Counted from the stretch's first letter, positions 44,851 to 50,327 are shown. The stretch is DNA of 64,000 bases from Euzebyales bacterium (GCA_035461305.1 DATHVN010000163.1:5840-69839), one strand, 5' to 3'. Notes: generated by a model not told the origin, from the letters alone. Translations and numbers: made by a program.

Positions 44851-46695
44851 ATGACGTCACGCGACCTGCGGTCGCCCGGTACCACAGCGGAGGTCGGCGT
44901 CAGCGCCCCGGCCGCCGCCCCGTGGCCAGTCATCGCCAAGGCGCCGGGGACCAGGCCGGTCCGCCCGAACCTTGACGACTACGACCGGATCAGGGTTACG
45001 TTCTCGTGGGAGGACGCGGCGCGGGAGCTCGACGGCCTGCCCGGAGGCGGGCTCAACATCGCACACGAGACGGTCGACCGCCACGCTGCGGGACCACGGC
45101 GGGACGTGGTCGCCCTGCGGTTCGTCGGGACGGACCTGGACGTCGTCGATCTGACGTACACCCAGCTCGCCGACGCGACCGACCGGTTCGCGAACATGCT
45201 GGACGACCTCGGCGTCCGGTCCGGCGAACGCGTCTTCGCGCTCGTCGGGCGGATCCCCGCGCTCTACATCGCCGCACTCGGCACCCTCAAGCACGGCAGC
45301 GTGTTCTGTCCGCTGTTCTCGGCGTTCGGGCCGGAGCCGATCCGCCAGCGGCTGGCGATCGGTGACGGCGTGGCGCTGGTGACCACGCCGCGGCTGTACG
45401 AGCGCAAGGTCACCGGCATCCGCGAGGCCGTGCCCACGCTGCGTCACGTGCTGGTCGCCGACGTCGGCGACGCCGCGCCTCCGGAAGGCACCGTGGACCT
45501 CGACCGCCCGCTGGCAAACGCGTCGCCGGCGCACCGGCGGCGCGCGACCGCCCCCGATGATCTGGCGCTGCTGCACTTCACGAGCGGGACGACCGGCACA
45601 CCGAAGGGTGCGATGCACGTGCACGGAGCGGTCGTCGCCCACCACGCGACGGCCAGGTACGCCCTCGACCTCCATAGCGACGACGTCTACTGGTGCACGG
45701 CGGACCCCGGCTGGGTGACCGGCACGTCGTACGGCATCGTCGCACCGCTCGCGCACGGGGTCACCAGCATCGTCGACACGGGCGAGTTCGACGCGGCGCG
45801 CTGGTACAGGATCGTCGAGCGGCTGGGGGTCACGGTGTGGTACACGGCACCCACGGCCATCCGCCGGCTGATGCGGGCGGGTGCCGATCTCGCCGCCGAG
45901 TTCGACCTCAGCCGCCTCCGGTTCGTCGCCAGCGTCGGTGAACCGCTCAACCCGGAGGCGGTGGTGTGGGGTGCGTCGGTGCTCGGCCGGCCGATCCACG
46001 ACAACTGGTGGCAGACCGAGACCGGCGCGATCATGATCGCCAACTTCGCCGCTAGCCCGATCAGGCCCGGCTCGATGGGACGCCCCGTGCCCGGCATCGA
46101 CGCGGCGGTCGTGCGGGTCGACCGGGACATGCGACCGGTCATCACGGACGGTGTCCCTGAGCTCATCGACGCCTCCGACGTCGAGGGCATGCTGGCGCTT
46201 CGGGTCGGGTGGCCGTCGATGTTCCGCGGCTACCTGCACGAGCCCGGGCGCTACGCCAGGACCTTCGCCGGGGACTGGTACCTGTCGGGCGACCTGGCAC
46301 GCCGGGACGCCGACGGCTGGTTCTGGTTCGTCGGCCGCGCCGACGACGTGATCAAGTCCGCCGGGCACCTCATCGGTCCGTTCGAGGTAGAGAGCGTACT
46401 GCTTGAGCACCCCGCCGTGGCGGAGGTGGGGGTGATCGGCACGCCCGATCCGCTGGCAGGTGAGATCGTCAAGGCGTTCGTCGCGCTCAACCCGGGCCAC
46501 GAGCCCGGCAGGCAGCTGCAGCTGGAGTTGCTCGGCCATGCGCGGCGTCGCCTCGGTGCGGCCGTCGCGCCGCGGGTGATCGAGTTCTCCACCGACCTTC
46601 CGAAGACGCGCAGCGGCAAGATCATGCGCAGGCTGCTGAAGGCCCGCGAGCTGGGCCTGCCCGAGGGGGACACGTCGACGCTGGAGCGCCTGTGA
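44851..46695 (+). CDS. acetyl-CoA synthetase-like AMP-forming acyl-CoA ligase
   Basis: Start MTSRDL follows GCAGGAGG. Motifs [45 protein letters not shown] and [11 protein letters not shown] are present. Confidence 0.9.
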
Positions 46696-47705
46696 TGACC
46701 ACGCCCGCACCCGCACCATCGCCCGCCACCGACCGGGAGCATGCACATGTCCTGCTGCGGCGCATGCTGCTGGTCCGGCGCTTCGAGGAGCGCTGCGCCG
46801 AGCTGTACAGCGAGACGAAGATCCGCGGCTTCCTGCACCTCTACATCGGGCAGGAGGCGGTCGCCGCTGGTGCGCTCGGCGTACTCGACGCCGACGACGC
46901 GGTCGTGGCCACCTACCGCGAGCACGGGCACGCGCTGCTGCGCGGCGTGTCGGCCCGCGCGGTGATGGCGGAGATGTTCGGCAAGGTGGAGGGTTGCAGC
47001 CGCGGCCGCGGCGGGTCGATGCACCTGTTTGATGCGGCCACCCGCTTCTACGGCGGCAACGCGATCGTCGGCGGTGGCCTGCCGCTGGCCGTCGGGTTGG
47101 CGCTGGCGGACAAGCTCGCGGGGAGGAGGCGTGTCACTGCGTGCTTCTTCGGCGAGGGTGCCGTCGCTGAGGGCGAGTTCCACGAGTCGCTCAACCTGGC
47201 GGCGCTGTGGGACCTGCCGGTGCTGTTCTGTTGCGAGAACAACCGGTACGCCATGGGCACCGCACTGCGGCGCTCGGAGTCCGAAATCGATCTGTCGCTG
47301 AAAGCCGCGGCCTACGAGATGCCAGCCTGGCCCGTCGACGGCATGGACGTCCTCGCGGTCGAGGACGCGGCGGCCAACGCGGTCCGTGCGATCCGCGGTG
47401 GTGGTGGCCCGCACTTCCTGGAGCTGCGGACCTACCGCTTCCGCGCGCACTCGATGTTCGACCCGCAGCGCTACCGGTCGTCGGAGGAGGTCGAGTATGA
47501 GCGGACGCACCACGATCCGATCGCGCAGTTCGACGAGCGGCTGCGCGCGGCCGGCCTGCTCGACGACCAGGATGTCGGTCGGATCGAGCAGGACGTGACC
47601 CGCGAGATCGACGACGCGGTCGCGTTCGCCGAGGCGGGCACGCTCGAGCCCGTCGCCGAGCTGACCCGGTTCGTCTACAGCGACTCGGCGGAGGAGGAGG
47701 CGTGA
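46692..47705 (+). CDS. 2-oxoacid (pyruvate/acetoin) dehydrogenase E1 alpha subunit, TPP-dependent
   Basis: Motifs [57 protein letters not shown] and [10 protein letters not shown] are present. The start overlaps the acs stop. Confidence 0.9.
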
Positions 47706-48679
47706 AGCTCACCTACCGCGAGGCCATGCGCGAGGCACTGCGCGACGCGCTTGCCCGGGACGACCGTGTGTTCCTGATGGGGGAGGACGTGGGTGCGTAC
47801 GGTGGGTGCTTCGCGGTCAGCCTCGGGCTGTTCGAGGAGTTCGGCCCCGAACGCGTCCGTGACACCCCGCTGTCGGAGTCGGCGTTCGTGGGCGCGGGCA
47901 TCGGCGCCGCACTCGGTGGCATGCGACCGATCGTCGAGATCATGACGGTCAACTTCAGCCTGCTGGCGCTCGACCAGATCATGAACAACGCCGCCACGAT
48001 CCTGCACATGTCCGGAGGCCAGTTCAACGTGCCGTTGGTGATCCGCATGACCACGGGGGCAGGCCGCCAGCTGGCTGCACAGCACTCCCACAGCCTGGAG
48101 GGCTGGTACGGGCACATTCCCGGCATCAAGGTGCTCGCGCCGGCGACGGTCGCGGACGCGCGCTGGATGCTGTGGACCGCGCTGGAGGACCCCGATCCGG
48201 TCCTCATCTTCGAGCACGGCAGCCTCTACGGGGTGGAGGGCGACGCGACGGAGTCCGGCCCGGTCGACATCGACCGTGCGGTGATCCGCCGCTCCGGCCG
48301 GCATGTGACGATGGTCACCTACGGTGGCAGCCTGCCGAAGACGCTCGCCGCCGCCGAGCAGCTCTCCGGTGAGGGCATCAGTGCCGAGGTCATCGACCTC
48401 AGGTCGCTGCGACCCCTCGACGCCGACGCGTTCCTGGTGTCGGTGGCGCGGACCCACCGCGTCGTCATCGTCGACGAGGGTTGGCGCAGCGGCAGCATCT
48501 CCGCTGAGATCAGCGCGACCATCGCCGAGCACGCCCTGCACGAGCTCGACGCGCCGATCCTGCGGGTCTGCGCCGCGGAGGTGCCGATGCCGTATCCCGC
48601 ACACCTGGAGCAGGCCGCACTGCCGCAGCCGGCAGCCATCGTCGCGGCCGCACACACTGCGGTGACGGGCGATGCCTGA
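47702..48679 (+). CDS. 2-oxoacid dehydrogenase E1 beta subunit
   Basis: [13 protein letters not shown]...[12 protein letters not shown]...[26 protein letters not shown]...RSLRPLD. GTGA overlap with E1 alpha. Confidence 0.92.
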
Positions 48680-50079
48680 ATTCCGCATGCCCTCGCTCGG
48701 TGCCGACATGGATGCCGGCACCCTGGTCGAGTGGCGCGTGGGCCCCGGCGATGTCGTCCATCGCGGGGACATCGTGGCCGTCGTCGACACCGACAAGTCG
48801 GCGATCGAGGTCGAGGTGTTTGACAGCGGCGTCGTCGACGAGTTGCTCGTCGACGAGGGCGCGCACGTGCCGGTCGGCACGCCGCTCGCCCGCATCCGCG
48901 CGCCGGTCGACGGCGTGCCCGCAGCCGAGGTCGCGGCACCCTCGACCGCGGCCGAGCCTGCGGGCGTGACGCGGCCGACGGTCTCCGCTGAAAGCACCCG
49001 CGCCGGTGCCACCGGCCCCGTTGGAGCCACCTGCCCCGGTGTCGGCCCATGTGGAACCTGCGCCAGTCCAGGCCCGGGTGGGACCAGCCCCCTCCGAGGA
49101 AGGTGCGGCCGCACCCGCCCACTCCCCGCTGGTGCGCCGCCTGGCGCGGATGCACGGGATCGACCTCGCCACGGTGATCGGCACCGGGCCCGCCGGGGAG
49201 GTCACGCGAGCCGACGTCGAGCAGGCGGTCGCGCGTGCCGGACGACCGCGCATCTCGCCGTATGCGCGCCGGCTGCTCGCCGGCACCGGGGTCGACGCGA
49301 CCCGGATCCGTGGCACCGGACCGCATGGCATGATCGTCGCGCGCGACGTCGTCGCGCTGTCCGGTCCGGCGGCGCCGGCGCCCGCCGGCCCGGAGGCGCC
49401 GGGCAGAGCCGACCGGCGGTCGGCGCAGCAGCGCGTGACCGCAGCGCTGATGGCCAGGTCGAAGCAGCAGATCCCGCACTACTACCTGCGCACCGACATC
49501 GACCTGACGCGCGCGACGACGTGGCTGGCGGACCGCAACGAGGGCCAGCTGATCACCGAGCGCGTGCTACCGTCCGCCTTGCTGCTCAAGGCCGCCGCCG
49601 TCGCCGCGGCGCAGGCGCCGGACATGAACGGGCACTGGGTCGACGGTGCCTTCCGGCCCGCCGACGAGGTACGGCTGGGCGTCGCGATCTCGCAGCGCGG
49701 TGGAGGGCTGATCGCACCCGCCATCCCTGGTGCCGATGCGCTGTCCGTCGACGACCTCATGGCGGCCCTGCGGGAGCTGATCGCCGGCGCGCGTGCCGGC
49801 ACGCTGCGCAGCTCGCACATGGTCGAGCCGACGATCACCGTCACCAACCTCGGCGACCGGGGCGCGGACGTCGTCCACGGCGTGATCTACCCGCCGCAGG
49901 TCGCACTGGTCGGCTTCGGCCGCATCGCCGCTCGCCCGTGGGTGGTGGACGGCACCGTCACGGCGCGTACCGGCGTCATCGGAACGCTCGCCGGCGACCA
50001 CCGGGTCAGCGACGGCCACCGCGGCGGCCGCTACCTGGCCACCGTGGACCGCCTCCTGCAGGAGCCAGCACAGCTATGA
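48672..50079 (+). pseudogene. dihydrolipoamide acyltransferase (E2): lipoyl domain, two E3-binding domains and catalytic domain, split by one frameshift in the first linker (or assembly indel)
   Basis: The lipoyl domain ([23 protein letters not shown]...[13 protein letters not shown]) is in frame 0. From about 48991 (the AAA run) the protein continues in the frame of ORF 49006..50079. That part holds the linker [15 protein letters not shown], two PSBD motifs and the catalytic [14 protein letters not shown]. Confidence 0.8.
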
Positions 50080-50327
50080 CCACGACCGACGACCTGCGCG
50101 ACACGATCCTGGACGTCGTGCGCACCATCGCGCCCGACGCCGACGTCGAGGGCCTCGGCCCGCACACCGACATGCGGGACCACCTCGATCTCGACTCGTT
50201 CGACTTCCTCAACGTGCTCGTCGAGCTCTCCGCGCGCACCGGCGTCGACATCCCCGAGGGCGACTACGCCAAGGTGTCGACGCTCGACGACTGCATCGCG
50301 TACATCGAGGCGCGCACGGCGGCCTGA
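50076..50327 (+). CDS. acyl carrier protein (phosphopantetheine-binding)
   Basis: An 83-aa protein whose ATG overlaps the E2 stop (ATGA at 50076-50079). The attachment motif is [16 protein letters not shown]. In the track it is hidden in the tail of chimeric ORF 48672..50327. Confidence 0.8.

Follow-up and report, generated by a model that had tools for sequence, protein, structure and literature searches.

An AcsA-type acetate ligase and a pyruvate dehydrogenase-type E1/E2 joined to a translationally coupled acyl carrier protein in a widespread, mobile operon

A 64,000-nt stretch of DNA from a Euzebyales bacterium, analysed over its whole length and referred to here as the window, carries on its plus strand (44851-50327) five consecutive genes that encode an AcsA-type acetate ligase, the α and β subunits of an E1 of the pyruvate dehydrogenase (PDH) type, a lipoyl-bearing E2 acyltransferase and a small acyl carrier protein (ACP). 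Few enzymes of central metabolism have been studied as thoroughly as PDH and acetyl-CoA synthetase, both of which are believed to use free CoA. The window has a G+C content of 72%, at which long spurious open reading frames (ORFs) are abundant and mechanically made ORF lists are of no use; the true frames were found from the G+C content at third codon positions (GC3), and the GC3 frame plot tracks each of the five genes. Together they are a single operon, one copy of a widespread and horizontally mobile module that we call the cassette. A preliminary description of the region had proposed the same five genes, chained by overlaps; domain and NCBIfam matches located all of them at these positions, and every overlap that it listed is present in the sequence. 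The ligase shares 100% identity with a protein named 'Euzebyales bacterium acetate--CoA ligase', which assigns the source to the Actinomycetota, class Nitriliruptoria.

The first gene, acs (44851-46695; 614 aa), starts with an ATG behind a GGAGG ribosome-binding site and encodes an AMP-forming enzyme with AMP-binding and AMP-binding_C domains. Its TGA stop overlaps the GTG start at 46692, or an alternative ATG start at 46695, of the gene for the thiamine pyrophosphate (TPP)-binding E1α (46692-47705; 337 aa). The E1β gene (47702-48679; 325 aa) is entered through a GTGA overlap at 47702, and the E2 gene (48672-50079) through an overlap of 8 nt at 48672. At the last junction, an ATGA at 50076, the start codon of the ACP gene (50076-50327; 83 aa) overlaps the E2 stop. 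A promoter and terminator scan of 44200-50600 returned nothing useful, a result that fits one transcription unit and is uninformative in high-GC DNA.

The intergenic region before acs (44704-44850) is presumed to hold the promoter. About 50 nt before the acs start it contains a perfect 7-bp inverted repeat, GGCGGAG (44783-44789) and CTCCGCC (44798-44804) separated by 8 nt, and a direct repeat, CTGCAG-CAAC-CTGCAG, extends into the acs ribosome-binding site. These repeats are possible operator or leader elements. No sigma-70-like promoter was found in 44704-44850.

In the window, E2 is spread over two reading frames. Three-frame translation places the lipoyl domain and the start of an Ala/Pro-rich linker in frame 0, with high GC3 (48672-48992; codon of the lipoyl-bearing Lys42 at 48795-48797), and the rest of the linker, two peripheral-subunit-binding domains and the catalytic domain in frame +1 (48994-50079; codon of the catalytic His at 49999-50001; a C-terminus, ...LLQEPAQL, that is typical of the family). 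The shift is caused by a single extra A at 48993. At this site the window reads CTGAAAGC, whereas two metagenomic relatives, L001 and L002, which align at 90% identity, read CTGAA-GC. E2 occupies one frame in L001 (443 aa), in L002 (439 aa) and in a further assembly, L093, which is 98.8% identical to the window up to 48889 and diverges sharply from there. The shifted part of the window gene keeps a high GC3 and thus shows no decay. We regard the extra A as an error of assembly or sequencing in a linker that is heterogeneous among strains; at most, it would be a lesion of very recent origin. Programmed recoding was ruled out, as close relatives do not have the extra A and the 98.8%-identical assembly reads E2 in one frame. 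The divergence of L093 from about 48889 lies just before the insertion (AA to AAA) and suggests strain heterogeneity or a chimeric assembly in the metagenome-assembled genome. It is because of the frameshift that a chimeric ORF of 551 aa arises, composed of the lipoyl domain, about 360 out-of-frame residues and the ACP. The preliminary description was right to place the ACP in the tail of this ORF, and had only half seen the frameshift behind it.

The ACP matches the PP-binding family (PF00550) at 33.3 bits against a cutoff of 20.8 and carries the attachment residue Ser41 (codon 50196-50198) in the motif DLDSFDF. In an alignment with 23 database relatives (40-92% identical to the window ACP), 13 columns are invariant, among them D40, S41 and D43. 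The family profile matches the mitochondrial ACPM and the mycobacterial AcpM in the PDB, with the Ser aligned to their phosphopantetheine site, and an AlphaFold model (predicted local distance difference test score, pLDDT, 88.6) has the four-helix fold, with helix II beginning at Ser41. Its location in the tail of a longer chimeric ORF, in DNA full of spurious ORFs, raises the possibility that the small ORF is there by chance. The chances of this are next to nil, given a GC3 of 0.96-0.98 in the ACP frame, a profile match above cutoff, a confident structural model and pN/pS ratios of 0.21-0.26 against 92%-identical relatives, which indicate purifying selection. Moreover, a search of 1.84 billion representatives with the ACP profile retrieved 1,223 at E <= 1e-10, nearly all of them stand-alone proteins of 80-90 aa. 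The ACP is thus a real component of a PDH-type operon and is maintained by selection.

A scan of 185,579 species-representative genomes, seeded with the ACP alignment alone, yielded at least 560 confirmed genomic loci. We compared the window proteins with the best 80 of these, of which 58 have more than 5.6 kb of upstream sequence and can be tested for gene order. The ligase, E1α, E1β and E2 genes precede the ACP gene in the same order and on the same strand in 58 of 58. Loci picked with the ligase alone, the ACP playing no part in the choice, also end in the ACP (4/4: Arthrobacter sp. OY3WO11, Agromyces aurantiacus, Microbacterium thalassium and a JGI contig), and so do all seven annotated plasmid loci examined. 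Recurrence of the small ORF downstream of E2 in related genomes had been set beforehand as a test of the arrangement; these loci show it to a degree well above what was expected, along with the co-occurrence of the five-gene order that the preliminary description had proposed to look for, and the profile check that it suggested for the ACP gave the PP-binding match described above. The overlaps are themselves conserved: the 4-nt ATGA between E2 and the ACP in 61 of 87 junctions, the 8-nt overlap between E1β and E2 in 38 of 59, and a 4- or 1-nt overlap between ligase and E1α in 50 of 61. Among the best loci, the ligase is about 60-72% identical to its window counterpart, E1α mostly 59-72%, E1β 64-80% and the ACP 42-60%; of the enzymes, E2 diverges most, at 35-61%. 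A mirror-tree comparison of 49 loci gave correlated distance matrices for all five proteins, as the cassette travels as one unit.

Judged by record titles, the hosts come from at least a dozen phyla: Pseudomonadota, Chloroflexota, Desulfobacterota, Myxococcota, Acidobacteriota, Verrucomicrobiota, Actinomycetota, Methylomirabilota, Nitrospirota, Planctomycetota, Gemmatimonadota and others. Plasmid-borne copies were detected in Rhodococcus sp. DK17, Desulfotalea psychrophila and Burkholderia savannae (the last two on conjugative plasmids), Ralstonia wenshanensis, Methylocystis rosea and Tropicibacter oceani. On plasmids, RefSeq names the genes acsA, pdhA, 'alpha-ketoacid dehydrogenase subunit beta', 'dihydrolipoamide acetyltransferase family protein' and 'acyl carrier protein'. 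We found no description of the cassette in the searchable literature, and a paper on the Burkholderia lxa locus does not mention the cassette genes. The cassette as such is apparently undescribed; each of its parts belongs to a known family, and systems that combine E1/E2 with an ACP are known in specialised metabolism.

Several copies vary on the common plan. Three betaproteobacterial cassettes carry a gene for a flavodoxin-like protein of about 165 aa (PF12682, 33 bits) between E1α and E1β (L014, ~7330-7840; L026, ~4530-5040; L064, ~7390-7880), which might be a redox partner in a module without E3. On the Tropicibacter oceani plasmid (L103, 5549-9532), E1α and E1β are fused into one gene of 665 aa, and a gene for a PF20603 'Bacterial hydrolase' (242 bits) begins at the ACP stop codon; in that lineage the cassette could have a sixth, thioesterase-like member. 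On the large conjugative plasmid of Desulfotalea psychrophila LSv54, a lipoate--protein ligase gene directly follows the ACP (L099, 8288-9298) and the cassette adjoins traI/traJ. D. psychrophila is a sulfate-reducing bacterium and an obligate anaerobe, and its plasmid here carries a PDH-type, lipoate-dependent module.

E1α matches E1_dh (PF00676, 294 bits) and scores 445 with TIGR03182 (PDH_E1_alph_y; cutoff 393.85). E1β consists of Transket_pyr (PF02779) and Transketolase_C (PF02780) domains and scores 389 with NF006667 (cutoff 321). After repair of the frame, E2 comprises a lipoyl domain (PF00364, 64 bits; Lys42 in DTDKS), two stretches of E3_binding (PF02817) and a 2-oxoacid_dh catalytic domain (PF00198, 164 bits; DHRVSDG). 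No NCBIfam model reaches its cutoff with E2, the best being TIGR01349, at 223 bits against 445, so that E2 has no curated equivalog match to a named acyltransferase (PDH, OGDH or acetoin). The best PDB matches of its catalytic domain are the cores of mitochondrial PDH E2; the catalytic His is kept, and a TNLG motif has Thr where Ser is usual. Among the cassettes L001-L090 the E2 C-terminus is almost uniformly ...LLQEPEKL, exactly 27 residues past the DHR and two to three residues shorter than that of human E2 (...EKPITMLL). Because of the ATGA overlap with the ACP start, the choice of codon for the last Leu is limited (CTA or TTA).

The low equivalog scores and the divergence of E2 could mean that the substrate of E1 and E2 is not pyruvate but, for example, acetoin or a different 2-oxo acid, and that the cassette is a catabolic operon for that compound. 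In aco/acu systems, cleavage of acetoin yields acetaldehyde and then acetate, which would give the ligase a role. We regard this as very unlikely, with E1α and E1β both above PDH equivalog or subfamily cutoffs and no aldehyde dehydrogenase conserved nearby. In addition, the E2 catalytic domain is a classical 2-oxoacid_dh domain that best matches PDH E2, not the α/β-hydrolase type of AcoC, and the match of E2 to the AcoC model NF011457 is confined to the N-terminal lipoyl-containing part (residues 4-190).

The cassette shares with PDH complexes of the heterotetrameric-E1 type (mitochondrial, alphaproteobacterial and Gram-positive) E1 subunits that pass PDH cutoffs and an E2 with the same domains and a DHRxxDG motif. 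It differs from them in its obligate, translationally coupled ACP, its obligate upstream acetate ligase, the score of its E2 below every equivalog cutoff and the shorter ...LQEPEKL end, and also in how rarely an E3 is linked to it. A regular-expression search, which is crude, found no Lpd-type CxxxxC motif in the 64-kb window and one within ±10 kb of the cassette in a single locus of 90. The absence of E3 pointed out in the preliminary description thus holds for the window; it carries little weight as evidence about the complex, as unlinked lpd genes are common (M. tuberculosis bkdABC, for example, has LpdC encoded elsewhere) and E2 keeps its peripheral-subunit-binding domains. A Pyr_redox_2 flavoprotein (424 aa) and, after it, a DsrE-like protein are encoded in the window at 60651-62770; the flavoprotein has no Lpd-type CxxxxC by pattern search, and the two look like a sulfur-handling pair rather than an E3.

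Another question is what would consume an acyl-ACP. In the window and about 100 related loci, neither the cassette nor its surroundings showed a conserved ketosynthase (KS), acyltransferase (AT, or any other acyltransferase), nonribosomal peptide synthetase (NRPS) or further enzyme that consumes acyl-ACP. This bears directly on a proposal taken from natural-product pathways, in which the module would supply glycolyl-ACP or another acyl-ACP to a polyketide synthase (PKS) or NRPS, as in quinocarcin and naphthyridinomycin biosynthesis. The likeness is real in so far as the Qnc, Nap and Din systems (QncN/QncL/QncM, NapB/NapD/NapC and DinS/DinU/DinT) also set a TPP-dependent E1-like enzyme and a lipoyl acyltransferase beside a small dedicated ACP, with no E3 in the cluster. 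Their E1 components are reportedly two-component transketolases that act on a ketose phosphate and pass a C2 glycolyl unit to an NRPS within a biosynthetic cluster. The cassette, in contrast, has a PDH-type E1αβ, not a transketolase-type one, and an AcsA-type ligase as an obligate fifth member; no PKS, NRPS, KS or tailoring gene occurs in the window or in the related loci, and the cassette, found in about a dozen phyla and on plasmids, belongs to hundreds of lineages that are not producers, one copy being on the plasmid of an obligate anaerobe. Passages of PMC7570522 that cite Peng et al. 2012 describe E1/E2-like enzymes used in this way with an ACP in tetrahydroisoquinoline (THIQ) antibiotic clusters, the acyl group going to the ACP rather than to CoA. 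As an account of the cassette, precursor supply is highly improbable and effectively refuted by gene context. The glycolyl-ACP analogy drawn in the preliminary description is therefore mismatched, the neighbours being universal stress proteins (USPs), a DevS-like kinase, Rv2632c-like proteins, phosphoribosyltransferases, RtcB and glycogen genes.

The ligase scores 875 bits with the 'acetate--CoA ligase' model NF003313 (cutoff 729), and its best PDB match is the acetyl-CoA synthetase 9g79_B, at 537 bits. The match to Bacillus subtilis AcsA (NF003313; PDB 9g79) is full-length. The cassette ligase shares with it the short architecture in which the loop carrying R191 of SeAcs, the CoA-binding loop, is absent, as well as the acetate pocket, hinge Asp, A8 Gly and catalytic Lys. 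Between 59 and 60 of 60 cassette ligases retain the acetate-pocket motif DNWWQTE and the equivalents of D517, G524 (the A8 Gly) and K609 (in SGKIMRR). The position of SeAcs R526, by contrast, is Leu or Met in 60 of 60 cassette ligases and in 119 of the 120 best database homologues; in the window it is the Leu of the A8 motif SAGHLIG (46300-46320). Arg stands at this position in SeAcs, in B. subtilis AcsA and in 8rpk, 5u2a and 7mmz. An Agromyces locus also encodes a second ligase outside the cassette, and this paralogue (L095, 6277-8247) keeps the Arg. The Leu or Met in place of R526 is the only family-specific active-site change that we found, and it lies in the ligase, not in E2.

According to PMC10455477, three conserved arginines (R191, R526 and R584) serve CoA binding and the thioester step; of these, R526 of SeAcs (R528 of AcsMt) stabilises the thioester-forming conformation; AcsMt R528A could not be saturated with CoA, and R528K and R528Q lowered kcat 130- to 326-fold. 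Replacement of this Arg in all cassette ligases implies that the half-reaction with the thiol acceptor has been specifically remodelled in the clade. It could be that the ligase alone uses the ACP, as an acetyl-ACP synthetase, while E2 makes acetyl-CoA, so that the module would generate two acetyl thioesters. The altered residue does sit in the thioester-forming A8 hairpin of the ligase rather than in E2, and it is with the ligase that the distances of the ACP show their highest correlation (r 0.55, partial r 0.27), figures that are confounded by alignment length. Citrate lyase offers a precedent, with an acetate:SH-ACP ligase that acetylates its carrier protein. We nevertheless consider it distinctly unlikely that only the ligase uses the ACP, the carrier being coupled to E2 at the end of the operon, far from the ligase gene, while the equivalent of R584 is retained and no enzyme that uses acetyl-ACP is linked.

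The strict linkage of the ACP, its coupling to E2 and the lack of an external acyl-ACP consumer suggest that its partners are the cassette enzymes themselves. We tentatively favour, at somewhat less than even chances, a role of the ACP, through its phosphopantetheine thiol, as the private acetyl acceptor of the module, a protein-bound stand-in for CoA between E2 and the ligase. E1 would decarboxylate pyruvate and acetylate the lipoyl arm of E2, and E2 would hand the acetyl group to the holo-ACP. The AcsA-like enzyme would then interconvert acetyl-S-ACP with acetate and adenylate, either charging the ACP from acetate and ATP or, in the energy-yielding direction, converting acetyl-ACP, AMP and PPi into acetate and ATP, as Syntrophus Acs1 does with acetyl-CoA. 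E3 (Lpd), a phosphopantetheinyl transferase (PPTase) and usually a lipoate ligase would be supplied from elsewhere in the genome, and the module would often be carried in gene islands of stress, hypoxia or dormancy, the window copy included. The passages of PMC7570522 that cite Peng et al. 2012 state that E2-like enzymes (NapB/D-NapC and Qnc) can acylate an ACP, and by analogy direct transfer from E2 to the ACP is plausible in the cassette. What we observe is the set of genes, their conserved order and coupling, the distribution of the cassette and the altered residue of the ligase; the acetyl nature of the cargo, the enzyme that loads or unloads the ACP and the direction of flux are what we infer.

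Several observations weigh against a private acceptor. The Arg that contacts the 3'-phosphate of CoA (SeAcs R584) is kept in the window ligase and in 59 of 60 cassette ligases; a phosphopantetheine arm has no such phosphate, which speaks for continued use of CoA. Taken together, the altered R526 and the retained R584 point in opposite directions as to the thiol acceptor. The catalytic domain of E2 is an ordinary mitochondrial-type PDH domain, in which sequence comparison revealed no change diagnostic of a protein acceptor; nothing in it distinguishes ACP from CoA. In classical E2 cores, CoA enters from the interior of the assembly, a route that would be awkward for a protein of 9 kDa. No fusion of the ACP with E2 or with the ligase occurs among the best 150 representatives of the ACP family, and a crude regular expression for Sfp-type PPTases found no match in the window or in 90 related loci. 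Finally, the distances of the ACP correlate slightly better with those of the ligase (r 0.55) than with those of E2 (r 0.49), a small gap confounded by alignment length.

In the main rival account, the module is an ordinary, stress-induced second PDH with an acetyl-CoA synthetase, both working on free CoA, and the ACP is accessory. As variants of this, the ACP may be a regulatory or acyl-state-sensing subunit, for example in Pat-type lysine acetylation of the ligase, or an outlet for acetyl groups to lipid or storage synthesis elsewhere. E1 and the ligase score as PDH and AcsA, in agreement with the RefSeq names, E2 is PDH-like, and the ligase conserves R584, K609 and the acetate pocket. It also retains the acetylation-site lysine in SGKIMRR, and some ACPs of the family are fused to Pat-like GNAT domains, a class that acetylates and inactivates Acs, while a stand-alone Pat-like GNAT is encoded beside the Rhodococcus cassette. 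However, a 4-nt overlap with E2 kept across about a dozen phyla would be rare for a mere accessory, no GNAT is conserved in the cassette, ACP-GNAT fusions make up three of the top 150 representatives, and the universal change of R526 to Leu or Met is left unexplained. We rate an accessory ACP as only slightly less likely than a private acceptor.

The fusions are of note in their own right. A family ACP of the DSMDWLN variant is joined to a Pat-like GNAT at L091 (758-1550; JGI 3300056972) and in proteins P0074, P0089 and P0099. The best NCBIfam match of the L091 fusion is the mycobacterial 'acetyltransferase Pat' (NF058543, 1e-20); its locus carries a frameshift and has no adjacent E2. In these proteins the ACP stands where mycobacterial Pat has its cAMP-binding regulatory domain. 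Another protein, P0139 (239 aa), joins a family ACP to an OsmC-like peroxiredoxin domain.

The ACP probably has an unrecognised role in acetyl handling under stress, and a hitherto unrecognised treatment of acetyl units is implied by a cassette that joins PDH and Acs to a dedicated ACP in hundreds of species and on conjugative plasmids. The most far-reaching form of the private-acceptor reading is a self-contained, CoA-independent acetyl relay in which E1/E2 would load the ACP from pyruvate and the remodelled AcsA would discharge acetyl-S-ACP to ATP and acetate. AMP-forming Acs enzymes can run towards ATP (PMC4992975, PMC13404658): Syntrophus aciditrophicus Acs1 (SaAcs1) gains energy from an acetyl thioester, AMP and PPi, which is one of the directions proposed here for the ligase. 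SaAcs1, unlike the cassette ligase, is of the long type, its bias maps to a CoA-binding loop (G196/T197) that the cassette ligase does not have, and it uses free acetyl-CoA with no ACP partner. The complete relay is unlikely, in our estimate; if true, it would be a portable module of substrate-level phosphorylation, used by bacteria of many phyla and by their plasmids in hypoxia or dormancy when the free CoA pool and energy charge are low. If the ACP does replace CoA, this would be the first case in primary metabolism of a 2-oxoacid dehydrogenase that feeds a carrier protein. The cassette may then amount to a new means of conserving energy or storing acetyl groups in dormant cells, and the genes that accompany Rv2632c-like proteins, USPs and DevS-like kinases in dormancy-type islands would gain a function. 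Because hosts that are cultured and tractable carry the cassette (Arthrobacter, Rhodococcus DK17, Agromyces, Microbacterium, Burkholderia, Methylocystis and Desulfotalea), the question can be tested directly.

The commonest clusters of flanking ORFs are tandem USPs (12 loci), phosphoribosyltransferases (7), PolX/PHP proteins and α/β-hydrolases (6 each), RtcB (5) and HPF-like proteins (4), and glycogen genes lie near several cassette loci. In the window, the gene divergent from the operon (44257-44703, minus strand) encodes an Rv2632c-like protein (PF08962, 111 bits), an associated neighbour outside the core. Further upstream are genes for a NiFe hydrogenase large subunit (8688-10133), a P-type ATPase with a C-terminal hemerythrin domain (12616-14994), an NfeD/FloA pair (14995-17633), a bacterial proteasome activator (19822-20298), a glycogen-debranching-like enzyme with a GT4 glycosyltransferase (23423-26758), an M50 protease with CBS domains (28170-29432), USPs (29719-30510 and 41220-42443), a GH65 phosphorylase (30474-33185) and a DevS-like histidine kinase of the GAF-GAF-HisKA_3 type (39121-40845); a phosphoribosyltransferase gene lies downstream (57238-57993). 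By these neighbour genes, the window looks like a dormancy or hypoxia island of the DosR type. Using the M. tuberculosis-type and Streptomyces coelicolor OsdR consensus (GGGACN4GTCCC and RGGGMCN4GKCCCY; PMC5069765), no DosR/OsdR site was found in 44704-44850, and counts over the window were at or below the shuffled expectation. We do not claim membership of a DosR/OsdR regulon, as no operator box was found. The stress association of the cassette, as read from its neighbourhood, is frequent and not universal.

On the Rhodococcus sp. DK17 plasmid pDK1, an Rv2632c-like gene overlaps the acsA start and is thus in the operon, immediately upstream. Genes for a PfkB-family kinase, an AAA_33 ATPase and the stand-alone Pat-like GNAT (motif AYLRFF) also lie upstream of this cassette (L098, 72-3053), and a USP and a GAF kinase/response-regulator pair follow it. 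In the window, a block on the minus strand (50372-53418), convergent with the ACP gene, encodes a DUF5671 membrane protein (581 aa), a protein of 162 aa for which no Pfam family reaches its cutoff, and two Sdh_cyt-type membrane subunits. In L001 and L002, too, this block comes after the ACP, so that it is syntenic in the lineage.

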